Source: Escherichia coli (GTDB lineage Bacteria > Pseudomonadota > Gammaproteobacteria > Enterobacterales > Enterobacteriaceae). From it: DNA of 64,000 bases. This document shows positions 6,463 to 47,025 of this stretch, in pieces; within the stretch, counting starts at the first letter, position 1, and every line of letters begins with the position of its first letter. Below the pieces are notes generated by a model that did not search any database, was not told the origin of the DNA, and was given only the letters and a program-made list of their open reading frames with translations. The position numbers were made by a program, and so were the translations under genes. Where the stretch lies: the NCBI RefSeq assembly GCF_048403405.1, contig NZ_CP183129.1; one strand, given 5' to 3'.

Positions 6463-7203
<741 letters not shown>

Positions 7204-21457: not shown

Positions 21458-22449
21458 TGCCATTACTCGATATTCGTAACCTGACCATTGAATTTAAAAC
21501 CGGTGATGAGTGGGTTAAAGCCGTCGACCGCGTAAGTATGACCTTAACCGAAGGTGAAATCCGCGGTCTTGTTGGCGAATCAGGTTCCGGCAAAAGTTTG
21601 ATTGCGAAAGCAATTTGTGGGGTGAATAAAGATAACTGGCGTGTTACAGCTGATCGTATGCGTTTTGATGATATCGATTTGCTGCGTCTCTCCGCACGCG
21701 AACGGCGCAAGCTGGTTGGTCACAACGTGTCGATGATTTTCCAGGAACCGCAGTCGTGTCTTGATCCTTCAGAACGAGTGGGTCGCCAGTTGATGCAAAA
21801 CATCCCAGCCTGGACCTATAAAGGCCGTTGGTGGCAGCGTTTTGGCTGGCGCAAACGCCGTGCCATTGAACTGCTGCACCGCGTGGGGATTAAAGATCAC
21901 AAAGATGCGATGCGCAGTTTTCCCTATGAGTTGACCGAAGGTGAATGTCAGAAAGTGATGATAGCCATTGCACTGGCGAATCAACCGCGTCTGCTGATTG
22001 CTGACGAACCGACAAACTCAATGGAGCCAACAACCCAGGCGCAAATCTTTCGCCTCCTGACGCGTCTCAATCAAAACAGCAATACCACTATTTTGCTTAT
22101 CAGCCATGACTTACAAATGCTTAGCCAATGGGCGGATAAAATTAACGTGCTTTACTGCGGTCAAACGGTGGAAACCGCGCCAAGTAAGGAATTGGTGACA
22201 ATGCCACATCATCCTTATACCCAGGCGCTGATCCGCGCGATACCAGACTTCGGCAGCGCGATGCCGCATAAAAGTCGCCTCAATACGCTGCCCGGCGCTA
22301 TCCCACTGCTGGAACAGTTACCGATTGGGTGTCGTCTGGGGCCGCGTTGCCCGTATGCACAACGAGAATGCATTGTGACGCCACGTTTGACGGGGGCGAA
22401 AAATCATCTCTATGCCTGTCATTTCCCGCTGAACATGGAGAAAGAGTGA
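21457..22449 (+). CDS. sapD: Sap ABC transporter ATP-binding protein
   Basis: 330-aa ORF with Walker A (GESGSGKS) and ABC signature. Confidence 0.9.
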
Positions 22450-22450
22450 G

Positions 22451-23257
22451 ATGATCGAAACGCTGCTTGAAGTGCGTAATTTAAGTAAAACGTTCCGCTA
22501 CCGGACCGGCTGGTTTCGTCGTCAGACCGTAGAAGCGGTAAAACCCTTGAGCTTTACGCTACGTGAAGGCCAGACACTGGCGATCATTGGTGAGAATGGT
22601 TCTGGTAAATCCACGCTGGCAAAAATGCTGGCGGGAATGATAGAACCTACCAGCGGCGAGTTATTGATTGACGATCATCCGCTGCATTTTGGCGATTATT
22701 CCTTCCGCAGTCAGCGTATTCGCATGATTTTTCAGGATCCTTCGACCTCGTTGAATCCCCGTCAACGTATCTCGCAAATTCTGGATTTTCCACTGCGTCT
22801 GAACACCGATCTGGAACCTGAACAGCGTCGCAAACAGATTATTGAAACGATGCGTATGGTTGGGCTGCTACCGGATCACGTCAGTTACTATCCGCATATG
22901 TTGGCACCCGGGCAAAAACAGCGTCTGGGGCTGGCGCGCGCGCTGATATTGCGCCCAAAAGTCATTATTGCCGATGAAGCCCTCGCCTCACTGGATATGT
23001 CGATGCGTTCGCAGTTGATTAATCTGATGCTTGAGTTACAGGAAAAACAGGGCATTTCGTATATTTATGTTACCCAGCATATCGGAATGATGAAGCACAT
23101 TAGCGACCAGGTGCTGGTGATGCATCAGGGCGAGGTTGTCGAGCGAGGCAGCACCGCCGATGTGCTGGCATCGCCGCTGCATGAACTCACCAAACGGCTG
23201 ATCGCCGGTCATTTTGGCGAGGCATTGACGGCGGATGCGTGGCGTAAGGACCGTTAG
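22451..23257 (+). CDS. sapF: Sap ABC transporter ATP-binding protein
   Basis: 268-aa ORF with Walker A (GENGSGKST); last gene of the operon. Confidence 0.9.
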   Translation: MIETLLEVRNLSKTFRYRTGWFRRQTVEAVKPLSFTLREGQTLAIIGENGSGKSTLAKMLAGMIEPTSGELLIDDHPLHFGDYSFRSQRIRMIFQDPSTSLNPRQRISQILDFPLRLNTDLEPEQRRKQIIETMRMVGLLPDHVSYYPHMLAPGQKQRLGLARALILRPKVIIADEALASLDMSMRSQLINLMLELQEKQGISYIYVTQHIGMMKHISDQVLVMHQGEVVERGSTADVLASPLHELTKRLIAGHFGEALTADAWRKDR

Positions 23258-23265
23258 TGTTTTGC

Positions 23266-23302
23266 ACCTCATCCTGACAGGGGCCCCCCTCAGGATGAGG
23301 TG
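23266..23302. terminator. Bidirectional stem-loop between convergent sapF and the MFS transporter gene
   Basis: Perfect 13-bp inverted repeat CACCTCATCCTGA / TCAGGATGAGGTG around a G/C-rich loop, filling the 49-bp gap between two convergent stop codons. Confidence 0.55.
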
Positions 23303-23306
23303 TTCA

Positions 23307-24470
23307 TTACTTTTGATTGTCGATTCTGGTGAGAGCAACCAGCAATGCCAGCGTATAACACACCGTAATTGCCAGACTCATTTTTAACAGTGTTTCTCCG
23401 CCAATTCCCGACAATGGCGCGGCTATACCGCCGAAGACAAACATGCTCATCCCCATCAACGCAGACGCCGTTCCAGATTCCTGCGTCCCTACTGCACTCA
23501 TAGCCTCTGCCCCGCCAACAGTGCCGATGCCGCTACAAAATGCGATGGTGAAAAATAATGCCACCAGTGCCGGAATGGGCAATTGTATCCATGCGCATAA
23601 GACCGTGAGCAATGCACACAAAATTGCCGCTATCAGGCCACCTCGCAACAATGTCATCGCGTTAATCCGTCGCGCCAGGCGCGAGAAGATCCATGAAGCA
23701 ATGATAAGTCCGATGCCGTTAAGGCCAAACACCAGGCTAAATTGCATTGGATTAAAGCCAAATTCCTTCTGCAACACGAACGACGAAGAGCCGATATATG
23801 CAAACAAACCGGCCAGCATAAAACTTTGAATCAGGCAAAAGCGCATAAAACGGCGGTTCTGCACCACGCTTCGTCCGGTTAATAGCAATGATGAGCCCCT
23901 TTTATTTTCTGGCAAGGTCTCATTAATAAATAACAGGCAGCCCAGCAACAGTACGGTGCTAATTTCAGCCATTACCCAGAATAAAGTGCGCCAGTCAAAA
24001 GTGCTGACAATGTACCCGCCCAGCACTGGCGACAACACCGGTGCCAGGCCATTCACCGTCATTAACAGCGCAAAAAACTGGGTCAACGTTACTCCCTGAT
24101 ATTTGTCACGAGCAATAGAACGAGAGAGCACCGAACCACCCGCCCCCGCGATCCCTTGAATAAAACGCCAGACCACCAGCCAGTAAATATTGTTCGTTGT
24201 CGCGCACAAAATGGAAGAAACAATAAACAATAGCAACGACAAGATTAACGGACGTTTACGCCCTATTTTGTCGCTCAGAGGGCCAAATAACAGTTGTCCG
24301 ACGCCAAGACCGATCAGTGATGCAGTCAGCGTTAATTGCGTTATGGTCGTGGTTGCCGCCAGTTGCTCAGACATCTCCGGCAAAGCCGGCAAATAAAGAT
24401 CGGTACACATCGGGCCGATACCGGCTAAAAGACCAAGAATCAATGCCCATGAAAGAGAGACTCTAGCCAT
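23307..24470 (-). CDS. MFS drug/H+ antiporter, Bcr/CflA (DHA1) family, 12 TM
   Basis: 387-aa ORF with MFS signature region GPLSDKIGRKRP and 12 predicted TM segments; 8 bp downstream of the OMF gene. Confidence 0.8.
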   Translation of the reverse strand: MARVSLSWALILGLLAGIGPMCTDLYLPALPEMSEQLAATTTITQLTLTASLIGLGVGQLLFGPLSDKIGRKRPLILSLLLFIVSSILCATTNNIYWLVVWRFIQGIAGAGGSVLSRSIARDKYQGVTLTQFFALLMTVNGLAPVLSPVLGGYIVSTFDWRTLFWVMAEISTVLLLGCLLFINETLPENKRGSSLLLTGRSVVQNRRFMRFCLIQSFMLAGLFAYIGSSSFVLQKEFGFNPMQFSLVFGLNGIGLIIASWIFSRLARRINAMTLLRGGLIAAILCALLTVLCAWIQLPIPALVALFFTIAFCSGIGTVGGAEAMSAVGTQESGTASALMGMSMFVFGGIAAPLSGIGGETLLKMSLAITVCYTLALLVALTRIDNQK

Positions 24471-24478
24471 ATTATTCC

Positions 24479-25852
24479 TTACTTGAGTGATGACATGCCG
24501 CCGCCCAGCGACTGCCAGAGCGTGATTCGGTTTGTAAAATCAGTCAGTTGTAGTGCCAGCAGCGCCTGCTGTGCGCTCCACAAGCTGCGCTGCGCCGTCA
24601 ACACGGTCAGGTAATCACCAACACCCGCCTGATAGCGACGCAAGCCAACATCGACCGTTTGTTGCTCAGCTTTAACATACTGGCGCTGTGCATCCAGTTG
24701 CTCTTCAAGCGTGGTCCGCCGCGCCAGTGCGTTAGCGACATCTTTAAATGCGCTCTGAACGGTTTTTTCATAGGTGGCAATGAGTCCACGCTTTTGTGCT
24801 TCTGCGTAACGAAGCTGCGCCAGATTACTTCCGCCAGTGAACAGCGGTAATGTGACCGATGGCGTAAATGACCAGATCTGCATTCCGTGGCTGAACAACG
24901 ACGACAATGCTTCACTGCCAACACCAGCGCTGGCAGTCAGCGAAATCGTCGGAAAAAAGTTAGCCCGCGCCGCGCCAATATCGGCATTGGCGCTCTTCAA
25001 ATTATGTTCCGCTTCCTGGATATCCGGGCGACGCAGCAGAACGTCAGATGACACTCCCGCAGGAACCAGACTTATCATCTGTTCCGGCAGGCTTTCCAGT
25101 GTTCCCGGTAGCAAATTTTCCTCAAGCGTTGTACCTGCCAGTAAGTTCAGCGCATTTTTATCCTGCATCACTTGTGTCTGATAGCTGGCAACGCTGGCGC
25201 GCGCTTGCTGATAAACACTCATCGCCTCACTGACATCTGTCGCTGCCGCCGTGCCAACCTGTTGCTGGCGCTGGATAATTTTCAATGAGTTTTCTGCACT
25301 GGCCATCGTTTCTTTTGCCAGGGCCAGGTTGCTGTTATCAGCCGCCAGTGTCAGCCAGGCGGTGCTGATTTCAGCAATCAGCGTTAAACGAGTGTTCTGG
25401 GCTGTAAATTCACTGGCAAGCCAGGTTTCCCGCGCCGCCCGAGATAAACTCTGATTACGACCAAACAGATCTAACGTAAAACTGGACACCGTGCCGTCAG
25501 CCTCGGCAGTGGTTTCCGTACCATTCGCCAGCGAACGACTGCGGGTTGAACTTAAGGCCGCATTCACCGTCGGGAATAACGACGCATTAGTTTGCCCATA
25601 GAGCGCCCGTGCTGAGTCAATATCAGCAATCGCTTTTTGCACATCGCGGTTACTGTTCAGTGCAATAGTCACCACCTGCTGCAATCGGGGATCGTGGATC
25701 ACCTGCTGCCAGTCATGGCTGATTGCCTTTCCCTGGCCCTGTGCTCCCGGCAAGGTCGCCGGGATTGGGGATTCAGGCGTGCTGTAGTGGGGCTCGAGCG
25801 AGACACATCCCGCACTCAACAGCACCAGAAAAATAAGAGAACGACGCAACAT
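24479..25852 (-). CDS. Outer-membrane efflux lipoprotein, NodT/OprM family
   Basis: 457-aa ORF with lipoprotein signal (LLSAGC) and OprM-like outer membrane factor repeats; 3 bp downstream of the RND gene. Confidence 0.85.
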   Translation of the reverse strand: MLRRSLIFLVLLSAGCVSLEPHYSTPESPIPATLPGAQGQGKAISHDWQQVIHDPRLQQVVTIALNSNRDVQKAIADIDSARALYGQTNASLFPTVNAALSSTRSRSLANGTETTAEADGTVSSFTLDLFGRNQSLSRAARETWLASEFTAQNTRLTLIAEISTAWLTLAADNSNLALAKETMASAENSLKIIQRQQQVGTAAATDVSEAMSVYQQARASVASYQTQVMQDKNALNLLAGTTLEENLLPGTLESLPEQMISLVPAGVSSDVLLRRPDIQEAEHNLKSANADIGAARANFFPTISLTASAGVGSEALSSLFSHGMQIWSFTPSVTLPLFTGGSNLAQLRYAEAQKRGLIATYEKTVQSAFKDVANALARRTTLEEQLDAQRQYVKAEQQTVDVGLRRYQAGVGDYLTVLTAQRSLWSAQQALLALQLTDFTNRITLWQSLGGGMSSLK

Positions 25853-25855
25853 AAC

Positions 25856-28800
25856 TTACTCCTGACGGCGCGGTTTACCGGCAAACAAACGTTTCACCAG
25901 TACAAAAAACAGAGGAACAAAGAAAATAGCCAGCAACGTAGCGGTCAGCGTACCGCCAATAATGCCCGTACCAATGGCGATGCGGCTGTTCGCCCCTGCG
26001 CCGGTTGCTATCGCCAGCGGCATTACCCCCGCAATAAACGCCAGCGAGGTCATGATGATTGGGCGTAAACGAGTCTGCGCCGCGCGTAATGCCGCACGAC
26101 TCAAGGAATAGCCCTCTGCAACCGCCGCTTCAGCAAATTCCACAATCAGAATGGCGTTTTTCGACGACAAGCCGATAGTGGTTAATAGCGCCACCTGGAA
26201 GTAAACATCGTTGTTTAAATCACGCATCCAGGCCGCCAGCGCCGCGCCAAGAAGCCCCAGAGGGATCACCAGAATGACCGAGAACGGGACTGACCAGCTT
26301 TCGTACAGTGCTGCAAGGCAGAGGAAAACCACCAGAATAGAAACTGCATACAGACTCAATGCCTGACCGCTGGCCAGTTTCTCCTGCAATGACAAACCAC
26401 TCCAGGCCCAGGTTGTTCCCGCAGGAAGACTGTTTGCCAGTTCCTCCATTTTTGTCATTGCATCGCCGGAACTAAAGCCAGTCGCATTTTCCCCCTGAAT
26501 TTCATAGGCTGCAGAACCGTTGTAGCGCACCAGTCTTTCCGGTCCATACAGCCAGCGGGTGGTTGCAAAAGCAGAGAATAGTGTCATGGCGTTATCGCTA
26601 CCGCGCACAAACCATTTACCTAAGTCTGACGGCGTGGAACGAAATTCACTGTCGCCCTGAATGTAGACTTTTTTCACACGACCACGGTCAATAAAGTCAT
26701 TCACATAAGTACCGCCCCACGCACTGGACAGGGTGTCGGTGACATCATTCAAACTCAACCCTAATGACACCGCTTTATTACTATCAATATCTACCTGCAA
26801 TTGCGGCATTTGTGGCAAATCATTGGCACGCACAGAATGTAACTCCGGACTTTGATTCGCTTTTTCTATCAACTGATTACGCATTTGCAGTAGTGTTTCG
26901 CGATCGGTTCCACCGTTAGCTAACAATTCAAACGTAAAACCATTGCTTTGCCCCAGCCCATCAACGGCTGGCGGCGTCATCGCAAATACCGTGGCATCAC
27001 GAATTGTGCCCAGCTCTTTGGTTGCCCGTAGGGCGATAGCCTGGGCGGTGTTTTCTGCCCCTTTACGTTGAGACCAGTTTTTCAACGAAACAAACGCCAT
27101 CCCGGTGTTCTGTCCGCTGCCGCTAAAACTGAAACCATCAACGGTAAAAATGACATCGGTATTTGCTTTCTCATTAATCAGGAACCAGTCAACAATCTGG
27201 CGATTCACTTCTGCTGTACGGGCAGCGGTCGCCCCGGCCGGCAGCGTGTACTGCACCATGATTTCGCCCTGGTCTTCAGTGGGTAAGAAACTGCCCGGCA
27301 GTTTCCACATCATCAGGGCCATTCCACCACCCAGTACGACATAAAGCCCCATCGTTCGAGCAGCACGGCGCAGGACATAAATTACGCCTCGCTGATATTT
27401 ATCTTCAGTACGGCGGTAAAAGCGGTTAAATGCGCCGAAAAAGCCTTTTTTATGTGGCGGAACATGCTGGAGGACGGAACCGCACAGGGCGGGAGTCAAG
27501 GTCAATGCCACTACCACGGAAAGCAGCATTGCGGAGATAATGGTTATCGAAAACTGACGATAAATTACCCCCGTAGATCCCCCAAAGAAGGCCATAGGCA
27601 GGAATACGGCTGACAACACCAGCGCAATGGCAACCAGTGCGCCAGAAATCTCGCCCATTGATTTTTCCGTGGCTTCACGCGCGGGCAACCCTTCGTCACG
27701 CATAATACGTTCGACGTTCTCCACCACCACAATGGCATCGTCCACCAGCAAGCCGATCGCCAGCACCATTGCAAACAACGTCAGGGTATTAATCGAATAG
27801 CCAAACAACGCAAGAACGCCGAATGTGCCCAGCAAAACGACGGGGACAGCTAACGCCGGAATCAGTGTGGCACGCAGGTTTTGCAGGAATAAATACATCA
27901 CGCAAACCACCAATACGATGGCTTCAAACAGCGTCTGAATTACGTCCTCTACAGAGATTTTAATAAATTCAGTGCTGTCTTTCGGGTATGCGATGTCGTA
28001 TCCCTGCGGCATGTTCCGCTGGAATTCGGCAATCTTATCCTTGACCAGCGTCGCCGTATTCAGCGCATTCGCACCGGGCGAAAGCATTACAGCAACCCCG
28101 GCAGACGGGTGACCGTTAAGTTTGCCGATAGCGGTATAATCTTCACTGCCCATCTCAACGCGAGCCACATCTTTTATACGAACAACTGCGCCGTCTGACT
28201 GGCTTTTCACGATAATATTTTTGAACTGATCCACCGTCTGCAAGCGAGACTGCGCACGTACCGTTGCGGTCAGTTGCTGAGTATTCGGTGAAGGCAATGC
28301 CCCTATTTTCCCGGCAGTAACCTGCACGTTTTGCGCTTCAATAGCACTTTGCACGTCTGAAGGCATTAGCGAGTAAGACGCCAGTTTGGCCGGGTCAAGC
28401 CAGATGCGCATAGCGTATTCCGCGCCAAAGACTTGCAGACTCCCCACACCTTCAACACGCGCCAGCGGGTCCTGAACGTTACTAACCAACCAGTCGGCGA
28501 TATCCGAACTGGAGGCTTTGTCAGTGGTGTCATACACGGCAGCAATCAGCAAAAAGTTGCTTTGTGATTTCTCCACCGTAACACCCGTTTGCTGCACTTC
28601 GCTGGGTAGGCGCGACTCCGCCTGCTGAATTTTATTCTGCACCTGAACCTGTGCAGTATCTGGATCGGTACCTTGTTCAAAGGTCACATTAATACTGACC
28701 GAACCATCAGAGCTGCTGGTTGAGCTGAAATAGAGTAAATTATCAAGCCCAGTGAGTTGTTGCTCGATAACCTGAGTCACGCTGTTCTCCAGCGTTTCGG

Positions 28801-28963
28801 CAGAAGCACCAGTATAAGTGGCTGAAATTTTAATGGTCGGTGGCGCAACGTCAGGATATTGCGCGACGGGCAATGTGCGAATAGCCAGAATCCCCGCCAA
28901 CATAATCAAAATGGCGATAACCCAGGCAAAGACCGGGCGGCGAACAAAAAAGCGCGAAAACAT
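25856..28963 (-). CDS. RND multidrug efflux permease (AcrB/MexB/HAE1 family)
   Basis: 1035-aa ORF with clear similarity to AcrB/MdtF but not identical to any K-12 RND pump I can recall; 12 TM plus large periplasmic loops. Confidence 0.9.
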   Translation of the reverse strand: MFSRFFVRRPVFAWVIAILIMLAGILAIRTLPVAQYPDVAPPTIKISATYTGASAETLENSVTQVIEQQLTGLDNLLYFSSTSSSDGSVSINVTFEQGTDPDTAQVQVQNKIQQAESRLPSEVQQTGVTVEKSQSNFLLIAAVYDTTDKASSSDIADWLVSNVQDPLARVEGVGSLQVFGAEYAMRIWLDPAKLASYSLMPSDVQSAIEAQNVQVTAGKIGALPSPNTQQLTATVRAQSRLQTVDQFKNIIVKSQSDGAVVRIKDVARVEMGSEDYTAIGKLNGHPSAGVAVMLSPGANALNTATLVKDKIAEFQRNMPQGYDIAYPKDSTEFIKISVEDVIQTLFEAIVLVVCVMYLFLQNLRATLIPALAVPVVLLGTFGVLALFGYSINTLTLFAMVLAIGLLVDDAIVVVENVERIMRDEGLPAREATEKSMGEISGALVAIALVLSAVFLPMAFFGGSTGVIYRQFSITIISAMLLSVVVALTLTPALCGSVLQHVPPHKKGFFGAFNRFYRRTEDKYQRGVIYVLRRAARTMGLYVVLGGGMALMMWKLPGSFLPTEDQGEIMVQYTLPAGATAARTAEVNRQIVDWFLINEKANTDVIFTVDGFSFSGSGQNTGMAFVSLKNWSQRKGAENTAQAIALRATKELGTIRDATVFAMTPPAVDGLGQSNGFTFELLANGGTDRETLLQMRNQLIEKANQSPELHSVRANDLPQMPQLQVDIDSNKAVSLGLSLNDVTDTLSSAWGGTYVNDFIDRGRVKKVYIQGDSEFRSTPSDLGKWFVRGSDNAMTLFSAFATTRWLYGPERLVRYNGSAAYEIQGENATGFSSGDAMTKMEELANSLPAGTTWAWSGLSLQEKLASGQALSLYAVSILVVFLCLAALYESWSVPFSVILVIPLGLLGAALAAWMRDLNNDVYFQVALLTTIGLSSKNAILIVEFAEAAVAEGYSLSRAALRAAQTRLRPIIMTSLAFIAGVMPLAIATGAGANSRIAIGTGIIGGTLTATLLAIFFVPLFFVLVKRLFAGKPRRQE

Positions 28964-30084
28964 CAGGCGTTGCCTCCATTAGCCTGAACTTCAACAGCCT
29001 TGACGGTCTGCCCTGAAGTGACTTTGGCAGAACCTTCAACAATCAGTCGGTCGCCGTTGTGCAGGCCGTTCAGCACCAGCCATTTATCACCATACGTTTC
29101 TCCCGTTTCGAGCGTTCGCTGCTCTACTTTATTGTCTTTATTCACCACCAGCGCAGTTGCATTGCCTTTAGCATCGCGCGTGACGCCCTGTTGCGGCGCG
29201 AGAATAGCGTCTTCCATCACGCCTTCATCGACACGAGCGCGAACAAACATTCCCGGTAATAACTGCTGTTGTGGATTGGGGAAAATCGCCCGTAATGTCA
29301 CCGAACCGGTAGACTCATCTACAGCGACTTCGGTGAGTTCCAGACGCCCTTTTTCGCTGTAGGTTGTGCCATCTTCCAGAATAAGTGAGACGCTCATGGT
29401 GTCACTGTTGGTCGCCAGTGACTGTTTACGCAGACGTAATAAATCGACACTGGAGCGAGTGAGGTCGACATACATTGTCTCCAGACCACGAATAGTCGTT
29501 AACGCTGTATCTTGCGACGCGGTCACCAGTGCGCCAGGGGTTACCGACGAAATGCCAATTCGCCCTGAAATCGGTGCGGTTACCGTGGTCCAGTCAAGAT
29601 TAATGCGCGCAGTTTCCAGCGCGGCTTTTTTCGCCTCTACACTGGCTTTATCTTGTGCACAGGTAGACTGAGCATCATCAGCATCCTGTTGTGAAACACC
29701 GTTCTCTTTCACCAGTCGGGCATAACGCTGCGCTTTCTGGCAATCGGCTTTTACCAGTGCCTGTGCTTGTTGTAATGCTGCCCGAGCTTCATTCCATGCA
29801 GCCTGATAACTGACCGCATCAATCTGGTAGAGAGGCTGTCCAGCCTTGACCAGATCCCCTTCCTTAAATAAGCGTTTCTGGATAATTCCCCCAACCTGCG
29901 GACGTACTTCAGCACTGAGCGCAGCACTGGTGCGTCCGGTTAATTCACTGACTACCGAGACCGGTTGAGATTTGACTGTAACAACGCCGACTTCTGTTTC
30001 TGACGGGGATGAATTGTTACTTTGCGTATTATCACAACCAGATAAGAGCAGCATTGCCACTACAGATGTTGCTATATACTTCAT
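28963..30084 (-). CDS. RND efflux membrane fusion protein (periplasmic adaptor lipoprotein)
   Basis: ORF track 28963..30117; start refined to ATG 30082-30084 (373 aa) preceded by GGAG; lipobox LLSGC; AcrA/MexA-like; stop overlaps the RND start. Confidence 0.85.
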   Translation of the reverse strand: MKYIATSVVAMLLLSGCDNTQSNNSSPSETEVGVVTVKSQPVSVVSELTGRTSAALSAEVRPQVGGIIQKRLFKEGDLVKAGQPLYQIDAVSYQAAWNEARAALQQAQALVKADCQKAQRYARLVKENGVSQQDADDAQSTCAQDKASVEAKKAALETARINLDWTTVTAPISGRIGISSVTPGALVTASQDTALTTIRGLETMYVDLTRSSVDLLRLRKQSLATNSDTMSVSLILEDGTTYSEKGRLELTEVAVDESTGSVTLRAIFPNPQQQLLPGMFVRARVDEGVMEDAILAPQQGVTRDAKGNATALVVNKDNKVEQRTLETGETYGDKWLVLNGLHNGDRLIVEGSAKVTSGQTVKAVEVQANGGNA

Positions 30085-30111
30085 TATTTTCTCCAGGGTG
30101 AGAAATACCCT

Positions 30112-30131
30112 CCTCATTAAAATTAATGAGG
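30112..30131. promoter_or_regulatory. Candidate TetR-family operator upstream of the efflux operon
   Basis: Inverted repeat CCTCATTAA-aa-TTAATGAGG with perfect 9-bp arms between the TetR gene and the MFP gene; further palindromes at 30169-30184 and 30195-30212. Confidence 0.35.
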
Positions 30132-30232
30132 ATATGTCAGGGATATTCAGTTATAACGAACCCGCATCGCGAAATGAATTTCGCAATGAAATAAGGGGGA
30201 TTAATATCCCCCGCTATTGGTTAATTCTGTTC

Positions 30233-30799
30233 TTATTTATTTATCAACATACTAACAATATCCTGATATATTTCCTGCAGATGTTGTGGATCGCTTTTTT
30301 GCGGTGTTAAACGACGATAAACCGTACCTTCCATCATGGTAGCAAACACTTCAACGCAGCAACGAATGTGCTCGTCGCTAAGATGGGGATGCATTCTTTT
30401 CATATGTGCACAACCGTTAGCGAACATTCTGGCGTCAGCTTCTTCAAGCATTGCCATAACCCGCGGGTTGCGTGTGGCTTCTGCAGCCACTTCCAGCATC
30501 AGCGCGTCGTCGTCCTCATTTAAGGATTTACGCAAGGCAAGGACTTCCGGGAAGTGATCGGTACGCGCGTCAATGTCCATTTGGGCAATACGAAAGTCGA
30601 TGATACGGCGAACCATCTCTTCAATAATGGCGTCTTTGTTGGCGAAGTAACGATATATCTGACCCACGCTAAGCTGAGCTTCGCTGGCAATTTGCGACAT
30701 ACTGGCGGCATGAAACCCGCAGCGACGAAAACACCGACGGGCGGCGTTAATGATTTCATCCTGACGCTGTTTGTGGCGTATCTCCAGCTTGCTGGTCAT
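30233..30799 (-). CDS. TetR/AcrR-family transcriptional regulator
   Basis: ORF track 30233..30898; start refined to ATG 30797-30799 (188 aa) preceded by AGGAGA; N-terminal TetR HTH (SMSQIASEAQLSVGQIYRYFANKD). Confidence 0.8.
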   Translation of the reverse strand: MTSKLEIRHKQRQDEIINAARRCFRRCGFHAASMSQIASEAQLSVGQIYRYFANKDAIIEEMVRRIIDFRIAQMDIDARTDHFPEVLALRKSLNEDDDALMLEVAAEATRNPRVMAMLEEADARMFANGCAHMKRMHPHLSDEHIRCCVEVFATMMEGTVYRRLTPQKSDPQHLQEIYQDIVSMLINK

Positions 30800-31276
30800 T
30801 TCTGTCTCCTGGCCTATCACTTGGTGAGAATGATCGTTCTCATTTTTGCTGATTATACGTTTCTCCAAAGTAATGGAAAGTATTTTTATCTTATTCATGG
30901 TGCATATTCTGATAATGAAGAGATTGTGGAGATTATGTGAAGATAGTTGACAATATTAAGTTGGGGTCAATTCATCAGAAAGGCTGCTACTTGTTGTCGC
31001 CAGTTCTGTTTTCATCATCAAACTTATCGGAGCTAATACGAATAGTTTCAGAGTCAGATTCTATAAGATATTCCCCCAACCTACCCCTTGCAGGCGTCAA
31101 GAGTAGATAACGCAAAATGCTCTGTACCGCAGCTTCTCTCCGGTACAGAAAGCGCAACTATAGCCACCCACAGCCAGGTTGATTATAATAACCGTTTATC
31201 TGTTCGTACTGTTTACTAAAACGACGAATCGCCTGATTTTCAGGCACAACAAGCATCAACAATAAGGATTAAAGCT

Positions 31277-32065
31277 ATGGGTTTTCTTTCCGGTAAGCGC
31301 ATTCTGGTAACCGGTGTTGCCAGCAAACTGTCCATCGCCTACGGTATCGCTCAGGCGATGCACCGCGAAGGAGCTGAACTGGCATTCACCTACCAGAACG
31401 ACAAACTGAAAGGCCGCGTAGAAGAATTTGCCGCTCAATTGGGTTCTGACATCGTTCTGCAGTGCGATGTTGCAGAAGATGCCAGCATCGACACCATGTT
31501 CGCTGAACTGGCGAAAGTTTGGCCGAAATTTGACGGTTTCGTACACTCTATTGGTTTTGCACCTGGCGATCAGCTGGATGGTGACTATGTTAATGCCGTT
31601 ACCCGTGAAGGCTTCAAAATTGCCCACGACATCAGCTCCTACAGCTTCGTTGCAATGGCAAAAGCTTGCCGCTCCATGCTGAATCCGGGTTCTGCCCTGC
31701 TGACCCTTTCCTACCTTGGCGCTGAGCGCGCTATCCCGAACTACAACGTTATGGGTCTGGCAAAAGCGTCTCTGGAAGCAAACGTGCGCTATATGGCGAA
31801 CGCAATGGGTCCGGAAGGTGTGCGTGTTAACGCCATCTCTGCGGGTCCGATCCGTACTTTGGCGGCCTCCGGTATCAAAGACTTCCGCAAAATGCTGGCT
31901 CATTGCGAAGCCGTTACCCCGATTCGCCGTACCGTTACTATTGAAGATGTGGGTAACTCCGCGGCATTCCTGTGCTCCGATCTCTCTGCCGGTATCTCCG
32001 GTGAAGTGGTCCACGTTGACGGCGGTTTCAGCATCGCTGCAATGAACGAACTCGAATTGAAATAA
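31277..32065 (+). CDS. fabI: Enoyl-ACP reductase (NADH)
   Basis: 262-aa [29 protein letters not shown]...; SDR family; matches FabI. Confidence 0.93.
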
Positions 32066-32085
32066 TCATTCTGTTGGTAAATATT

Positions 32086-32110
32086 GGGCGGCGTTCTGCC
32101 GCCCGTTATC
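32086..32110 (+). terminator. Intrinsic terminator after fabI
   Basis: GGGCGGC-loop-GCCGCCC hairpin followed by a T-containing tract, 20 bp after the fabI stop. Confidence 0.5.
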
Positions 32111-32209
32111 TCTGTTATACCTTTCTGATATTTGTTATCGCCGATCCGTCTTTCTCCCCTTCCCGCCTTGCGTCAGGATAACGATTTCCTTTACGACCAA
32201 GGAGCGCCC

Positions 32210-33404: not shown

Positions 33405-35339
33405 ATGTTTCAGGACAACCCGCTGCTAGCGCAGCTTAAACAGCAACTGCATTCCCAGACGCCACGCGCTGAAGGGGTGGTAAAAGCCACAGAAAAAGGC
33501 TTTGGCTTCCTGGAAGTCGACGCGCAAAAAAGTTATTTCATTCCGCCGCCGCAGATGAAAAAAGTCATGCATGGCGACCGAATTATCGCGGTGATCCACA
33601 GTGAAAAAGAACGTGAATCCGCAGAGCCAGAAGAACTGGTTGAACCGTTCCTGACTCGTTTCGTGGGTAAAGTTCAGGGCAAAAATGACCGTCTGGCCAT
33701 CGTTCCTGATCATCCACTCTTAAAAGACGCCATTCCTTGCCGCGCAGCCCGTGGCCTGAACCACGAGTTTAAAGAAGGCGACTGGGCGGTTGCCGAAATG
33801 CGCCGTCATCCGCTGAAAGGCGATCGTTCTTTCTATGCTGAACTGACACAATACATCACTTTTGGTGACGACCACTTTGTACCGTGGTGGGTTACACTTG
33901 CGCGCCATAATCTGGAAAAAGAAGCACCAGACGGCGTCGCTACCGAAATGCTCGATGAAGGTCTGGTTCGTGAAGATCTGACCGCGCTGGATTTTGTCAC
34001 CATCGACAGTGCCAGCACAGAAGATATGGATGACGCCCTTTTCGCTAAGGCGTTGCCGGATGACAAACTTCAGCTGATTGTGGCGATTGCCGATCCAACC
34101 GCGTGGATTGCAGAAGGCAGCAAGCTGGACAAAGCCGCGAAAATTCGCGCATTCACCAACTATCTGCCTGGCTTCAACATCCCTATGCTGCCTCGCGAGC
34201 TTTCTGACGATCTCTGCTCACTGCGCGCCAATGAAGTCCGCCCGGTACTGGCATGCCGCATGACGCTCTCCGCTGATGGCACCATTGAAGATAATATCGA
34301 ATTCTTTGCCGCCACCATCGAATCCAAAGCGAAGCTGGTGTATGACCAGGTTTCTGACTGGCTGGAAAATACCGGTGACTGGCAGCCTGAAAGTGAAGCA
34401 ATTGCCGAACAAGTCCGTTTGTTAGCGCAAATTTGCCAACGCCGCGGCGAGTGGCGTCATAACCACGCACTGGTGTTTAAAGATCGCCCGGATTACCGCT
34501 TTATTCTCGGTGAAAAAGGTGAAGTGCTGGATATCGTCGCCGAGCCCCGTCGCATTGCCAACCGTATCGTCGAAGAAGCGATGATTGCCGCTAACATTTG
34601 TGCGGCCCGCGTACTGCGCGATAAGCTCGGTTTTGGCATCTATAACGTGCATATGGGCTTTGATCCGGCAAATGCCGACGCGCTGGCAGCGTTGCTGAAA
34701 ACGCACGGTCTGCATGTCGATGCCGAAGAAGTGCTCACGCTGGACGGTTTCTGCAAACTGCGTCGTGAACTGGACGCGCAACCAACTGGTTTCCTCGACA
34801 GCCGCATTCGTCGCTTCCAGTCATTTGCTGAAATTAGCACTGAACCCGGTCCTCACTTTGGCCTCGGTCTGGAAGCATACGCCACCTGGACTTCGCCGAT
34901 CCGTAAATATGGCGACATGATCAACCACCGTCTGCTGAAAGCGGTTATCAAAGGCGAAACTGCGACGCGTCCGCAGGATGAAATCACTGTCCAAATGGCC
35001 GAGCGTCGCCGTCTCAACCGAATGGCAGAACGTGATGTTGGCGACTGGTTATACGCACGCTTCCTGAAAGACAAAGCCGGGACTGACACCCGTTTCGCGG
35101 CGGAAATTGTCGATATCAGCCGTGGCGGCATGCGTGTGCGTTTGGTTGATAACGGCGCTATTGCCTTTATTCCGGCACCTTTCTTACACGCTGTGCGCGA
35201 TGAACTGGTTTGCAGCCAGGAAAACGGCACTGTACAAATTAAAGGTGAAACGGCTTACAAAGTGACTGACGTTATTGACGTCACCATTGCCGAAGTCCGC
35301 ATGGAAACCCGCAGCATTATTGCGCGCCCGGTCGCGTAA
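33405..35339 (+). CDS. rnb: Exoribonuclease II (RNase II)
   Basis: 644-aa ORF with RNB catalytic domain and C-terminal S1 domain. Confidence 0.92.
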
Positions 35340-35350
35340 TCTCCTTTCAC

Positions 35351-35380
35351 GGCCCATTCCTCATGAATGGGCCATTTATT
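35351..35380 (+). terminator. Intrinsic terminator after rnb
   Basis: GGCCCATT-loop-AATGGGCC hairpin followed by ATTTATTT. Confidence 0.5.
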
Positions 35381-35573
35381 TCCCCGCTCCACCTTCGTCA
35401 TATCCCGGCAGATTTTTAACTGACTTTCGTTTGAAAACTGGCGTTTTTCCAAAACTGGATTACAAATAAATATATAAAAAAAACAATGCGTTTAGCCGCC
35501 GTTAATTTCATGTAAGTCATGTTGTTCCTTTTATTTAACCGCGGACTCCGCTGTTAACCGGAGGATATGCATC

Positions 35574-37559
35574 ATGAAAACCGTTAGGGAGTCCACAACG
35601 TTGTACAACTTTCTCGGATCGCACAATCCATACTGGCGGTTAACGGAAAGCAGCGATGTTTTGCGCTTTTCTACCACCGAAACCACAGAACCTGAACGTA
35701 CGTTGCAGTTATCTGCCGAACAGGCTGCTCGCATCAGGGAAATGACAGTCATCACTTCCAGTCTGATGATGAGTCTGACCGTCGATGAAAGCGATCTTTC
35801 TGTGCATCTGGTAGGACGAAAAATCAATAAACGGGAATGGGCTGGCAACGCGTCGGCATGGCATGACACACCGGCGGTTGCTCGTGATTTATCACACGGG
35901 CTTTCCTTTGCTGAGCAGGTAGTTTCTGAAGCACATTCCGCAATAGTGATTCTCGACAGTCGGGGGAATATCCAGCGCTTCAATCGGTTATGTGAAGATT
36001 ACACAGGGTTGAAAGAACACGACGTCATTGGGCAAAGCGTGTTTAAACTGTTTATGAGCCGTCGTGAAGCTGCGGCATCCAGGCGCAATAACCGTGTATT
36101 TTTTCGAAGCGGCAATGCATATGAAGTCGAACTGTGGATACCAACACGTAAAGGCCAGCGGCTGTTTCTGTTTCGCAATAAATTTGTCCACAGCGGTAGT
36201 GGCAAAAACGAGATTTTTTTAATCTGTTCCGGCACCGACATTACCGAAGAGCGCCGCGCTCAGGAGCGACTGCGCATTCTGGCAAATACCGACAGTATCA
36301 CCGGACTGCCGAATCGTAACGCAATGCAGGAGTTAATCGATCACGCTATTAATCAGGCAGATAACAATAAAGTTGGGGTTGTGTATCTTGATTTGGATAA
36401 TTTTAAAAAGGTCAACGACGCCTATGGGCATTTGTTTGGTGACCAGCTATTACGCGACGTGTCATTGGCTATTTTAAGCTGTCTCGAACATGACCAGGTG
36501 TTGGCGCGTCCAGGTGGCGATGAGTTTCTGGTACTGGCATCCAACACCTCACAAAGCGCGCTGGAAGCAATGGCATCACGAATTTTGACCCGCTTACGGC
36601 TCCCCTTTCGCATTGGTTTAATTGAAGTTTATACCAGCTGTTCAGTAGGTATTGCACTCTCTCCCGAACATGGTTCAGACAGCACGGCTATTATTCGTCA
36701 CGCCGACACAGCAATGTACACAGCGAAGGAAGGCGGACGAGGACAATTTTGCGTTTTTACCCCAGAAATGAATCAACGGGTATTTGAATATCTCTGGCTG
36801 GATACCAACTTGCGTAAAGCACTGGAAAACGATCAGTTGGTTATTCACTATCAACCGAAAATCACCTGGCGTGGCGAAGTGCGCAGTCTGGAAGCACTAG
36901 TACGTTGGCAGTCACCTGAACGTGGGTTGATTCCACCGTTGGACTTCATTTCCTACGCCGAAGAGTCAGGGCTAATTGTGCCTTTAGGCCGTTGGGTGAT
37001 TCTCGATGTCGTACGCCAGGTGGCGAAGTGGCGGGATAAAGGTATTAACCTGCGAGTGGCGGTAAATATTTCTGCACGTCAGCTCGCCGATCAAACCATT
37101 TTCACCGCCCTGAAACAGGTTCTCCAGGAACTCAATTTTGAATACTGCCCTATAGATGTTGAACTGACAGAGAGTTGTCTGATTGAGAATGATGAACTGG
37201 CACTGTCTGTTATTCAACAATTTAGCCAACTAGGTGCGCAAGTGCATCTGGATGATTTTGGTACCGGCTACTCTTCACTTTCGCAACTGGCGCGCTTTCC
37301 GATCGATGCCATCAAACTTGACCAGGTTTTTGTTCGAGATATTCACAAACAACCTGTCTCGCAGTCACTGGTCCGGGCGATCGTCGCTGTGGCCCAGGCA
37401 TTGAATCTTCAGGTGATCGCCGAAGGTGTAGAGAGTGCAAAGGAAGATGCTTTTTTAACCAAGAACGGGATCAATGAGCGGCAAGGATTTTTGTTTGCCA
37501 AACCGATGCCCGCCGTCGCCTTCGAACGCTGGTATAAACGCTATCTGAAGCGCGCATAA
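35574..37559 (+). CDS. pdeR: Cyclic-di-GMP phosphodiesterase PdeR (PAS-GGDEF-EAL)
   Basis: 661-aa ORF with PAS, degenerate GGDEF and intact EAL domain; synteny. Confidence 0.9.
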   Translation: MKTVRESTTLYNFLGSHNPYWRLTESSDVLRFSTTETTEPERTLQLSAEQAARIREMTVITSSLMMSLTVDESDLSVHLVGRKINKREWAGNASAWHDTPAVARDLSHGLSFAEQVVSEAHSAIVILDSRGNIQRFNRLCEDYTGLKEHDVIGQSVFKLFMSRREAAASRRNNRVFFRSGNAYEVELWIPTRKGQRLFLFRNKFVHSGSGKNEIFLICSGTDITEERRAQERLRILANTDSITGLPNRNAMQELIDHAINQADNNKVGVVYLDLDNFKKVNDAYGHLFGDQLLRDVSLAILSCLEHDQVLARPGGDEFLVLASNTSQSALEAMASRILTRLRLPFRIGLIEVYTSCSVGIALSPEHGSDSTAIIRHADTAMYTAKEGGRGQFCVFTPEMNQRVFEYLWLDTNLRKALENDQLVIHYQPKITWRGEVRSLEALVRWQSPERGLIPPLDFISYAEESGLIVPLGRWVILDVVRQVAKWRDKGINLRVAVNISARQLADQTIFTALKQVLQELNFEYCPIDVELTESCLIENDELALSVIQQFSQLGAQVHLDDFGTGYSSLSQLARFPIDAIKLDQVFVRDIHKQPVSQSLVRAIVAVAQALNLQVIAEGVESAKEDAFLTKNGINERQGFLFAKPMPAVAFERWYKRYLKRA

Positions 37560-37705
37560 GTAGATGAATATATATACTTAGCGCTATATCCCGTCATTAT
37601 ATATCGTATTCCTGGATGATAATTAGCCGTTGCTGTTAAACACTTCTCTTTTAGCGGCAATTTTTGCATTATTCATTTTCCACTTTTACTATAAGGATGT
37701 CCTTG

Positions 37706-37879
37706 ATGTCTGAATTTGATGCCCAGCGCGTTGCCGAACGTATTGATATTGTGTTAGATATCCTTGTGGCAGGCGATTACCACTCTGCGATCCATAATCT
37801 CGAGATACTTAAAGCAGAACTCTTGCGCCAGGTTGCTGAATCTACGCCAGACATCCCGAAGGCACCGTGGGAGATTTAA
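37706..37879 (+). CDS. yciZ: Small protein YciZ (UPF0509)
   Basis: ORF track 37664..37879; start refined to ATG 37706 (57 aa [14 protein letters not shown]...). Confidence 0.7.
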
Positions 37880-37968
37880 CAATCGTGCCTTCAGGTTTTC
37901 CTATTTGAGGATGCCCGGCGCGTCAGTATTTTTTTATTTAGTATTATAACGTTATAAGAATTACAGCG

Positions 37969-38718
37969 ATGAATTCCCGACAACAAACTATTCTACAGAT
38001 GGTCATTGACCAGGGTCAGGTTAGCGTAACCGATCTGGCAAAAGCCACTGGAGTTTCTGAAGTTACCATTCGCCAGGATCTCAACACCCTCGAAAAACTG
38101 AGTTACCTCCGCCGTGCACATGGCTTTGCAGTTTCGCTTGATAGTGATGACGTCGAAACCCGTATGATGAGCAACTATACGCTGAAGCGTGAACTCGCCG
38201 AGTTTGCCGCGTCTCTGGTTCAACCGGGCGAAACCATCTTTATCGAAAATGGTAGCAGCAATGCCCTGCTCGCCCGGACTCTGGGCGAACAGAAGAAAAA
38301 TGTCACTATCATCACAGTCAGCAGCTACATTGCGCATTTGCTGAAAGACGCGCCTTGTGAAGTCATTTTGCTCGGTGGCGTGTACCAGAAAAAAAGCGAA
38401 AGTATGGTTGGCCCTTTGACACGCCAGTGCATCCAGCAGGTACATTTCAGCAAAGCATTTATTGGTATTGATGGCTGGCAACCTGAAACTGGATTCACCG
38501 GTCGCGATATGATGCGTACCGATGTGGTCAATGCCGTGCTGGAAAAAGAGTGCGAAGCGATAGTCCTGACTGACAGCTCGAAATTTGGTGCTGTACATTC
38601 ATACTCCATCGGTCCCGTTGAGCGATTCAATCGCGTGATTACCGATTCGAAAATACGCGCCAGCGATCTGATGCATCTTGAGCACAGTAAACTCACCGTT
38701 CACGTCGTTGACATTTAA
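37969..38718 (+). CDS. yciT: DeoR-family transcriptional regulator
   Basis: 249-aa ORF with N-terminal DeoR HTH and C-terminal sugar-phosphate-binding domain. Confidence 0.85.
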
Positions 38719-38986
38719 CCATTTCCCTTCTCTACGGATGATTTGCAGTTTGGCAAATCATCCGCTCTAAGATGATTCCTGGTTGATAATTAAGACTATT
38801 TACCTGTTATTAACACTCTCAAGATATAAAATTATTATCAGCGATATAACAGGAAGTCATTATCACCTGCGTGATATAACCCTGCGCGCGAGCAGATTTC
38901 ACGGAATAATTTCACCAGGCTTATTCTTAGCTATTATAGTTATAGAGAGCTTACTTCCGTGAATCATAAATTCAGGAGAGAGTATT

Positions 38987-39205
38987 ATGTTTGTAACGAG
39001 CAAAAAAATGACCGCGGCTGTTCTGGCAATTACCCTGGCAATGTCTCTGAGTGCCTGTTCTAACTGGTCTAAACGGGACCGCAACACCGCAATCGGCGCG
39101 GGTGCAGGGGCATTAGGCGGTGCAGTACTGACCGATGGCAGTACGTTGGGTACATTAGGTGGTGCAGCTGTCGGTGGTGTTATTGGTCACCAGGTCGGTA
39201 AATAA
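38987..39205 (+). CDS. osmB: Osmotically inducible lipoprotein B
   Basis: 72-aa ORF with lipobox LSACS and glycine-zipper G-x-G-A repeats. Confidence 0.88.
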   Translation: MFVTSKKMTAAVLAITLAMSLSACSNWSKRDRNTAIGAGAGALGGAVLTDGSTLGTLGGAAVGGVIGHQVGK

Positions 39206-39300
39206 TCGTAAATAAATGTCGATTATCGACTCGCAATTATAATACGCTTGATTCTGTTCAGTACGAAATAACTGAATAATACACACAGTAAAATATTCGA

Positions 39301-39328
39301 AAGCCACGGATATATCCGTGGCTTTTTA
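39301..39328. terminator. Bidirectional intrinsic terminator between convergent osmB and yciH
   Basis: AAGCCACGG-atatat-CCGTGGCTT hairpin flanked by A- and T-runs. Confidence 0.6.
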
Positions 39329-39330
39329 TG

Positions 39331-39660
39331 TTAACCACCTGCGAGTTTTACCTTCATCCCTTTCGCTTCAAGTAGTGATTTTAATAAATCACGCTTATCG
39401 CCCTGGATTTCAATAACTCCATCTTTAACTGCTCCGCCGCAGCCGCATTTTTTCTTCAGTTCCGCTGCAAGTTTTGTCAGTTCGGCATCATCGAGATCGA
39501 CACCGGTAATCAGGCAAACGCCCTTACCTTTACGTCCACTGGTCTGACGCTGAATACGCACCACACCGTCGCCTTTAGGGCGTACAGGGGCCGCTTTGGG
39601 CTCATCAATACGTCCGGTTTCCGTTGAGTAGACCAGACGGCTGTTGGAATCACTCATCAT
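39331..39660 (-). CDS. yciH: SUI1/eIF1-family translation initiation factor homologue
   Basis: 109-aa ORF; SUI1 fold; overlaps pyrF stop. Confidence 0.87.
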
Positions 39661-40394
39661 GCACTCCGCTGTAAAGAGGCGTTGATCGCTTTCAGCGTCT
39701 GCGCTGGATCTACCGATTGCGTTACCGGGCGACCAATCACCATATAATCAACACCAGCCGACAACGCCTGTTCTGGCGTCATAATGCGGCGCTGGTCACC
39801 AGCTTCACTCCCCTGCGGACGAATGCCCGGCGTAACCAGTTTGAACTCCTGACCGAATACCTGTTTAAAGCGCACAGCTTCCTGAGCAGAACACACCACA
39901 CCATCAAGGCCACATTTTTGCGTCAGTGCCGCCAGACGTTCTGCATAATCTGCAGGTGACAGTGTCATGCCAAGATCGACCAGGTCGCTGGCTTCCATGC
40001 TGGTCAACACTGTCACAGCAATCAAAAGCGGTGCATCTTTGCCAAACGGAACCAGTGCCTCACGCGCTGCGGTCATCATACGCGCCCCACCAGAGGCATG
40101 AACATTCACCATCCACACGCCTAAGTCAGCTGCAGCAGCGACAGCGTGCGCAGCAGTGTTAGGAATATCGTGGAATTTCAGGTCAAGAAAGATATCAAAA
40201 CCACGCTGTTGAAGTTCGCGCACAAACTGTGGCCCAAACAATGTAAACATCTCTTTGCCGACCTTCAGACGACAATCGCGTGGGTCGATCTTGTCGACAA
40301 AGGACAGCGCGTCATCACGATTATGATAATCAAGGGCAACAACCACAGGAGAATTCGTAACAGCGCGGGAAGAAGATGAAGCAGTTAACGTCAT
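39657..40394 (-). CDS. pyrF: Orotidine-5'-phosphate decarboxylase
   Basis: ORF track 39657..40454; start refined to ATG 40392-40394 (245 aa). Confidence 0.9.
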
Positions 40395-40586
40395 GACCAG
40401 ACCTTCTTGATGATGGGCACCGGAAGTGGCGCGAAACAGGTAAACGGCGAGCATTCTACCCGTGGAAATAAAAAATTAACAGTTGCGATTTTTCCCCTGG
40501 CAGGCTTTTTCTGCGCCGTCGTTGCCGGAGCACAATGGAACATCAATAACTAGTATGTTGTAACTAAAGTCGGATTTTTTTAAAAA

Positions 40587-41756: not shown

Positions 41757-41762
41757 AGAAAG

Positions 41763-42071: not shown

Positions 42072-42219
42072 ATTACTTCCCGTTATGTGGTTAGAGCGAA
42101 TAAATTATGGTCAACTTACCGCAATAGCCCTTTAAAGTACCATTTTCGCGCCGTCTGCGAAATGGCATCCACGCGCATTGTTGATGATTTAAGGGCTAAA
42201 TTCGGAAAATCAACCAGCG

Positions 42220-42984: not shown

Positions 42985-43153
42985 GGCCTCTCCTTTTTGA
43001 TAAGTCCCACAATCATAACTGAAAATGCCAGTTCCAGGAAAAATTGACAGATTTGTGCCATTCCGTGAACGATCGACGCGTCGTGATTAGGTGAACCCCT
43101 TCTCGTTATGGCAAAATAAGCCAATACAGAACCAGCATTATCTGGAGAATTTC

Positions 43154-47023: not shown

Positions 47024-47025
47024 AG

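Follow-up and report, generated by a model that had tools for sequence, protein, structure and literature searches.

An Escherichia coli sapF-fabI interval that is almost certainly the published efflux operon eefRABCD, and a candidate RNA leader ahead of its pump genes

We analysed a 64,000-nucleotide stretch of Escherichia coli DNA (contig NZ_CP183129.1 of assembly GCF_048403405.1; hereafter the window), and in particular the interval between its genes sapF and fabI, which is occupied by five intact, co-directional minus-strand genes in the order eefR-eefA-eefB-eefC-eefD. These are almost certainly the E. coli operon already published and named as eefRABCD. Positions 22400-32200 of the window are 100% identical to the chromosome of E. 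coli MS 69-1, in which the same five genes are annotated, and all 16 of the 16 published oligonucleotides of Shen et al. (primers and single-guide RNA) map in the expected genes with 0-2 mismatches; the eefD-F and eefD-R primers fall at the two ends of eefD, while the single-guide RNA and the quantitative PCR primers map within eefR. In operator and catalytic residues the window agrees with the published operon of strains ATCC 25922, ATCC 35218 and SMS-3-5, with which it also shares the site, gene order, protein lengths, a 148-bp gap and the primer sites. With respect to most other carriers it is an allelic variant (98-99% nucleotide identity) that shows no difference of substance.

An initial annotation of the window, made from the letters alone, had recognised a TetR-family regulator, a membrane fusion protein (MFP), a 1035-amino acid resistance-nodulation-division (RND) pump, a NodT/OprM-type outer membrane factor (OMF) and a Bcr/CflA-type transporter of the major facilitator superfamily (MFS), and all five genes are indeed found where it had placed them. 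It had also offered them as a discovery, to be withdrawn if the set turned out to be the named content of the interval; since the literature already names it so (PMC12817139; PMC12482432), the discovery falls by its own terms. The interval and its flanks are composed as follows.

22451-23257, plus strand: sapF, left flank, common to K-12-type genomes (RefSeq annotation of the identical MS 69-1 stretch)
23265-23301, no strand assigned: hairpin between the convergent sapF and eefD, CACCTCATCCTGA...TCAGGATGAGGTG (read from the sequence)
23307-24470, minus strand: eefD, Bcr/CflA-type MFS efflux transporter, 387 amino acids (TIGR00710; primer sites)
24479-25852, minus strand: eefC, NodT/OprM-type outer-membrane lipoprotein channel, 457 amino acids (TIGR01845; lipobox; published residues)
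25856-28963, minus strand: eefB, HAE1 RND permease, 1035 amino acids (TIGR00915, NF000282; proton-relay residues)
28963-30084, minus strand: eefA, periplasmic adaptor (MFP) lipoprotein, 373 amino acids from the RefSeq start (TIGR01730; lipobox)
30085-30232, minus strand: eefR-eefA spacer, 148 nt, putative three-hairpin structured leader (folding, covariation)
30233-30799, minus strand: eefR, TetR-family autorepressor, 188 amino acids (Pfam TetR_N; V45, R50)
30800-31276, no strand assigned: divergent eefR-fabI intergenic region, AT-rich, GC 0.396 (GC count)
31161-31189, no strand assigned: fabI promoter-like site, inside the part common to K-12 (consensus scan)
31277-32065, plus strand: fabI, right flank (annotation)

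The eef genes are close-packed, with gaps of 8 and 3 nt and one 1-nt overlap of the eefA stop and the eefB start, and the sole wide gap among them is the 148 bp from the eefR stop to the eefA start. The longest open reading frame of eefA extends to 30117 (RefSeq start: 30084) and that of eefR to 30898 (the 188-amino acid gene begins at 30799). The hairpin beyond eefD has a stem common to K-12-type genomes and a loop that differs from theirs, and is probably a bidirectional terminator, a function that we infer from its sequence.

The family assignments of the five proteins agree with this identity. EefR matches Pfam TetR_N (PF00440) over residues 16-62 (E = 2.1e-15) and, in its C-terminal part, TetR_C_6 and TetR_C_31 (E ~6e-5), and holds the published residues V45 and R50. 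Against the NCBIfam models, EefA scores above the cut-off of TIGR01730 for RND-type MFPs (273.2 bits, cut-off 94.9), with a lipobox LLSG-C17 and the published residues R120, L124, S131 and D136, and EefC above that of TIGR01845 for NodT-type OMFs (373.2 bits, cut-off 210.05), with a lipobox LLSAG-C16 and the published residues D206, G412, L415, T416, L418 and T419. EefB exceeds the cut-offs of TIGR00915 (HAE1 RND; full-length, 1548.7 bits, cut-off 940.35) and NF000282 (1496.3, cut-off 1250), and its proton-relay residues D408, D409, K935 and T972 are all there. It stays under the NCBIfam equivalog cut-offs for AcrB (1374.9 versus 2150) and AcrD (1404.2 versus 1854), and therefore is not a K-12 pump, as the initial annotation had rightly judged; its closest solved relatives are AcrB and MexB. 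EefD, finally, is above the cut-off of the Bcr/CflA subfamily TIGR00710 (280.8 bits, cut-off 200.9) and below those of the NCBIfam equivalogs for Bcr (NF008314, 227.9 versus 303), TcaB, EmrD and PunC. Diagnostic residues were compared with those given in PMC12817139 and PMC12482432.

The operon was first mentioned in strain SMS-3-5 (Fricke 2008), with a further mention by Colclough et al. 2019 (PMC6790063). In a survey of over 20,000 assemblies, Pugh et al. (bioRxiv 2024; Microb Genom 2026, PMC12817139) found eef in phylogroups B2, D, E, F and G, without exception in the sapF-fabI interval; in phylogroups A, B1 and C that interval holds ycjD. Work by Shen et al. 2025 (PMC12482432) showed that EefR represses its own promoter by binding TGAGAACGATCATTCTCA, that all five genes are co-transcribed according to junction reverse-transcription PCR (RT-PCR), and that loss of EefR raises eefA-D mRNA 27- to 83-fold; in their hands overexpression in a delta-acrB background increased the minimum inhibitory concentrations (MICs) of sanguinarine, chloramphenicol, erythromycin, tetracycline, clindamycin and fusidic acid. 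Repression, operator, co-transcription and efflux phenotypes are thus known from experiments by others in other strains (PMC12482432, PMC12817139). As a finding, the locus itself adds nothing to this literature, in which the pump, the seventh of the RND type in E. coli, is already named together with its repressor.

Some observations sit less comfortably with the operon as published. The reported drug phenotypes conflict, with dye efflux only in the study of Pugh et al. and 8- to 32-fold MIC shifts in that of Shen et al., and "multidrug pump" therefore denotes a capacity and not a proven natural role. A terminator-like hairpin (H1, below) lies between eefR and eefA, which is awkward for a simple single-transcript model. 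Moreover, we know of no inducer of EefR.

Two elements upstream of eefR bear on how the operon would be controlled.

30825-30842, minus strand: EefR operator TGAGAACGATCATTCTCA, 25 nt upstream of the eefR ATG, an exact match to the site defined by electrophoretic mobility shift assay (EMSA; PMC12482432)
30852-30879, minus strand: sigma-70-like eefR promoter, TTTCCA-16-TATAAT (consensus scan, 10/12 matches)

A match to the operator is expected by chance 0.01 times per window, and the site lies just downstream of the -10 element of the predicted eefR promoter; the upstream 316 bp have been shown to have promoter activity (PMC12482432). The same consensus scan found no promoter-like site reaching 9/12 matches in the 148-bp eefR-eefA gap, which fits read-through from the eefR promoter as well as the published junction RT-PCR (PMC12482432). 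In the proposed mechanism, EefR would sit as a dimeric TetR-family repressor on the 18-bp palindrome and keep the five-gene transcript almost silent, the arrangement of operator and promoter suggesting promoter occlusion as the mode of repression. Inactivation of EefR by mutation, and presumably also by a ligand, would lead to derepression, and transcription would then proceed from the eefR promoter through eefR, over the 148-nt structured spacer and into eefA-eefB-eefC-eefD. The lipoprotein adaptor EefA, the proton-driven HAE1 RND trimer EefB and the OprM-like channel EefC would assemble into a tripartite exporter spanning the envelope, with EefD as a separate MFS exporter of the inner membrane, and the overexpressed pumps would, in acrB-deficient cells, export ethidium, rhodamine 6G, sanguinarine and several antibiotics.

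What the pump does in nature may be another matter, and it is a real possibility, if somewhat short of an even one, that its natural job is the export of a host-associated or endogenous compound, in gut colonisation, acid stress or virulence, with drug efflux as a side capacity. In ATCC 25922 the MICs are unaffected by deletion of the pump, the operon matches acrAB-tolC in its degree of conservation and is limited to infection-associated phylogroups (PMC12817139), and an eefA mutant of Klebsiella pneumoniae is weaker in gut colonisation and acid tolerance (Coudeyras 2008, cited in PMC12817139). On the other hand, no natural substrate or inducer has been identified, and overexpression clearly results in the export of drugs (PMC12482432). 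A natural role of this kind is compatible with the identity of the locus as eefRABCD and does not exclude it.

The conservation of the EefR regulon also speaks for such a role, as EefR and its operator are kept across plant- and gut-associated Enterobacterales, even where eefD alone follows eefR. Our scan with an EefR alignment, taking one genome per species, yielded 47 orthologous loci, nearly all of which keep the operator, and in almost all Enterobacteriaceae loci it is located 19-31 nt upstream of eefR. Three architectures occur: eefR-A-B-C with or without eefD, eefR-eefD without the RND genes, and eefR alone. The second was found in Kluyvera georgiana, Kosakonia sacchari, Erwinia, Pantoea, Winslowiella, Lonsdalea and Brenneria, and the eefD homologues that directly follow eefR in these eefABC-less loci have 46-68% identity; in three Kosakonia species neither eefA nor eefD adjoins eefR. 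The distribution of architectures suggests that the TetR-MFS pair eefR-eefD is the older module, and that an eefABC cassette, together with its leader, was inserted between the two genes.

The spacer between eefR and eefA is exactly 148 bp long (30085-30232) and rich in palindromes, as had been noted in the initial annotation. Three near-perfect palindromes in this gap correspond to three predicted hairpins.

30195-30212, minus strand: hairpin H1, GGGGGAU-AUUA-AUCCCCC followed by UUAUUUCAUU, just after eefR (terminator scan)
30165-30188, minus strand: hairpin H2, the best-supported helix (RNAalifold on a structure-blind MAFFT alignment)
30111-30132, minus strand: hairpin H3, 27 nt upstream of the eefA ATG (palindrome and covariation)

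We tentatively propose, at a little less than even confidence, that this spacer is a conserved cis-acting RNA leader that gates or enables expression of eefABC downstream of the repressor gene. It may combine a leaky terminator, by which the regulator-to-pump ratio is set, with elements that make the downstream mRNA more stable or allow it to be translated. A conserved three-hairpin leader before the pump genes appears to be undescribed, and appears to be absent from the eef papers.

With a stem of 7 pairs, including 5 G-C pairs, a loop of 4 nt and the U-rich tail TTATTTCATT, H1 has the sequence features of an intrinsic (Rho-independent) terminator and is a candidate for one, and both hairpin and U-rich tail are kept across genera though the stem sequences change. 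H2 shows compensatory changes in 6 of its 9 pairs, with 94-96% of cells paired, and H3 changes on both sides in 7 or 8 of 9 pairs; H3 is followed by an almost invariant ribosome-binding region, UCACCCUGGA(G/A)AAA. The compensatory changes in the spacer hairpins span about 25 species.

An alternative explanation would take the gap as a mere spacer, made up of an ordinary eefR terminator and of palindromes that are due to chance or bind a protein, with no role at the RNA level; we consider this possible at clearly less than even confidence. H1 fits a plain intrinsic terminator, as this explanation would have it, yet the length of the gap is held at 129-155 nt in 27 of 29 eefR-eefA junctions, the two exceptions being one with a 124-bp ERIC-like (enterobacterial repetitive intergenic consensus) insertion and one of 42 nt, and the homologous locus on an Enterobacter plasmid has a spacer of exactly 148 nt too. 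When folded singly, 27 of 27 orthologous spacers form the three hairpins at the same relative positions. The stems differ between genera and their complementarity is kept, which is expected of a nucleic-acid hairpin and not of a protein operator. EefR, moreover, does not bind the spacer fragment, which served as the non-specific competitor in EMSA (PMC12482432). In Escherichia sp. MOD1-EC7003 the ERIC-like repeat of about 124 bp is situated just upstream of H1 (locus positions 6568-6839), and the three hairpins are intact.

Covariation argues in the same direction. On the plain MAFFT alignment RNAalifold recovered H2 only, because the stems of H1 and H3 were aligned out of register; the spacers were hence re-aligned with a covariance model, and pairs were also counted on the structure-blind alignment. 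The latter has 80.8% of cells paired, versus 46-52% when the partners are slid, both-side changes in 16 of 24 pairs, and a covariation score of 0.341 against 0.12-0.16. The covariance-model alignment gives 84.4% paired, 19 of 24 pairs changed on both sides and a score of 0.416, and over both alignments the slid controls span 46-53%; on four of five measures none of 500 shuffles of this alignment reached the observed value, and on the fifth one of 500 did, figures to be read with the caveat, in favour of a mere spacer, that sequence kinship inflates shuffle controls and that related sequences can exceed shuffles without any structure. In 624 kb of sequence the covariance model matches only eefR-eefA spacers. 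The E. coli spacer itself has a folding z-score of -4.23, but its antisense strand folds well too (z = -3.0), and in the strand test 61 G-U cells stand against 38 A-C cells, a modest sense-strand bias; both results would suit palindromes that have no part to play in RNA.

Rfam 15 gave no match in the eef interval (the whole window at gathering thresholds, and 30000-31300 at E up to 1), and no alternative antiterminator pairing was found in the spacer. The idea of a conserved leader peptide was rejected, since the ATG at 30117, upstream and in frame, is confined to E. coli and missing from other genera.

The two functional studies differ in a manner that touches the proposed RNA leader. Shen et al. 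reported that the sequence upstream of eefA is essential for the operon phenotypes (PMC12482432), which is hard to reconcile with a mere spacer; their eefA-F primer maps to 30378-30397, and their constructs therefore contain the whole spacer. Pugh et al. cloned eefABC via an NdeI site and obtained almost no drug phenotype (PMC12817139). That site presumably lies at the start codon, in which case their constructs would lack the native spacer.

Leaky terminators within operons and structured 5' leaders are known to set regulator:pump ratios, as in the attenuation of mexXY and in antibiotic-responsive leaders. Like these, the eef spacer has a terminator-like hairpin and U-tract between regulator and effector genes, as well as further conserved hairpins ahead of the ribosome-binding site; unlike these, it comes without a conserved leader peptide, an antiterminator pairing that we could find, or an Rfam match.

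The closest known system outside Escherichia is EefABC of Klebsiella (Enterobacter) aerogenes and K. pneumoniae, an orthologous tripartite RND pump that is cryptic in laboratory conditions and, unlike E. coli eef, is not located at sapF-fabI. The K. aerogenes cluster, in the Masi accounts of 2005 and 2006, is reportedly without eefR and eefD and silenced by H-NS. Identity between the E. coli and Klebsiella proteins is 78.1% for EefA, 87.3% for EefB and 74.9% for EefC (Shen et al., PMC12482432). MexAB-OprM of Pseudomonas aeruginosa similarly combines adaptor, RND pump and its own OprM-type lipoprotein channel in one operon, and EefB is about 57% identical to MexB and EefA 54% to MexA (PMC12817139). 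It differs in that mexR is of the MarR family and divergently transcribed, that no MFS pump is linked, and that the system is constitutively expressed and a major determinant of intrinsic resistance. EefD falls within the Bcr/CflA subfamily of the DHA1 exporters, which include EmrD/MdfA types, and outside the individual equivalogs named above; with E. coli Bcr it shares no more than about 30% identity (PMC12482432).

AcrAB-TolC, AcrD and MdtEF of K-12 share with EefB the HAE1 RND family, the architecture and the proton-relay residues, but use an unlinked TolC, whereas EefC is encoded within the eef operon. The initial annotation had stressed that the pump carries its own channel, unlike the TolC-dependent pumps; the channel is there, but this is not unique, as CusCFBA of K-12 carries its own OMF as well. 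CusC also serves as a comparison in PMC12817139. According to published modelling, pairing with TolC would be incompatible with the EefC gate and with the hairpin residues of EefA, and yet Shen et al. saw EefAB working without EefC (PMC12482432).

Within the species the locus is accessory, as had been surmised. Among 5426 complete E. coli genomes, 2037 (about four in ten) have the full eef locus, and nearly all others have the flanks and a 633-bp ycjD segment only; K-12-type genomes thus bear out that ycjD is the sole gene between sapF and fabI there. Homology to the K-12 type extends on the left to 23264, followed by the shared hairpin stem to about 23301, and on the right it sets in again at about 31127-31157, shortly before the fabI promoter-like site. 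Between these borders lie about 7.85 kb here versus 633 bp in the K-12 type, so that only the sapF-side hairpin and the fabI-proximal ~150 bp are shared. A search of the 633-bp segment for eef remnants (blastn, word size 7) gave only chance matches of at most 22 nt, and at significant similarity we did not reproduce the alignment of the K-12 intergenic region to operon fragments that has been published. At the fabI-side border the ycjD segment of a K-12-type genome has a GC-rich, repeat-like sequence, GCCCCTCTGGGGAGAGGGTTAGGGTGAGGGG (locus positions 1930-2000), and the eef-type allele a different palindrome with a 12-bp stem (window 31121-31149).

The direction of the exchange was probably the reverse of that proposed in the initial annotation, in which an island had replaced ycjD. 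In Escherichia, eef was probably the original occupant of sapF-fabI and gave way to the ycjD segment in phylogroups A, B1 and C, because eefR adjoins fabI not only in E. coli but also in E. whittamii, E. albertii and Escherichia sp. MOD1-EC7003, and because the locus has no mobility signature; the published reading is likewise that eef was lost in these phylogroups (PMC12817139). An older arrival in the Escherichia ancestor remains plausible, since eefR adjoins fabI in no other genus sampled, and to that extent the suggestion of an old or enterobacterial-origin acquisition holds, though probably not with eef taking the place of ycjD. We regard the eef locus as a lineage-polymorphic chromosomal segment, not a mobile island.

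It is most improbable that eef arrived recently as a mobile resistance island or is being spread by plasmids: K-12 and 62% of complete genomes lack it, and five E. coli "plasmid" records with eef have been listed by Shen et al. (PMC12482432), but no integrase, transposase or tRNA is annotated in the sapF-fabI interval, no repeats of at least 8 nt are common to both junctions, and the same fabI-adjacent site is occupied in E. albertii, E. whittamii and Escherichia sp. MOD1-EC7003. The GC content of the variable segment, 0.506, equals that of the whole window, 0.506, which upholds the earlier impression of a backbone-like composition; AT-rich parts are limited to two non-coding stretches (GC 0.385 and 0.396).

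From their five records Shen et al. inferred plasmid-mediated transmission (PMC12482432). In PLSDB, only three E. coli records match eef over its full length, all of them among these five, and all three are chromosomal DNA. NZ_CP134663.1 is a "plasmid" of 4.9 Mb, the size of a chromosome. CP054253.1 and NZ_CP141085.1, one of them 252 kb and the other 385 kb long, are non-mobilizable, have no replicon type listed, and carry the chromosomal neighbours ymjA-sapABCDF and fabI-yciW-rnb-pdeR, the essential fabI included; they are therefore pieces of chromosome labelled as plasmid. For three of the five cited records the claim of plasmid spread is thus unsupported. A diverged homologue is genuinely plasmid-borne, namely an eefRABC with ~75% identity on an IncFIB plasmid of Enterobacter cloacae.

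Elsewhere in the window, somewhere in 35339-52005, gene positions become offset by 1 nt from those of the MS 69-1 record, so that the identity between the two does not hold for the full length of the window. Between cobO and rluB lie two hypothetical genes, of 102 amino acids (55309-55617, minus strand) and 333 amino acids (55628-56629, minus strand), without NCBIfam or PADLOC match, which may form a small accessory insert. An IS200C transposase gene (about 52005-52464, minus strand) is found between yciN and sohB, adjoined by the IS200-associated Rfam RNA STnc490 (52473-52596, minus strand). In the matching RefSeq record puuB (gamma-glutamylputrescine oxidase; 9708-10978, minus strand) and yciQ (about 57885-59779, minus strand) are annotated as frameshifted pseudogenes. 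Rfam also identified the small RNA STnc180 (46613-46815, minus strand) and the trp operon leader (61464-61557, plus strand), both expected features of the backbone.

For annotation, the identity of the locus is of value because RefSeq still gives the five eef genes generic names only in the matching record. Of the five records behind the published inference of plasmid spread, at least three are chromosomal DNA under a plasmid label. The EefR operator and regulon reach more widely than eefABC and probably predate it, as indicated by the eefR-eefD pairs of Erwinia, Pantoea, Lonsdalea and Brenneria, and this may help in the search for a natural inducer. The proposed leader, if real, would explain both the need for the sequence upstream of eefA and the near-absent drug phenotype of Pugh et al.; in a stronger version, a ligand, a protein or translation would decide whether H1 is read through, and this would add a second layer of control to a cryptic pump. 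The three-hairpin spacer is therefore put forward as a testable candidate, one that may account for the conflict between the two functional studies.

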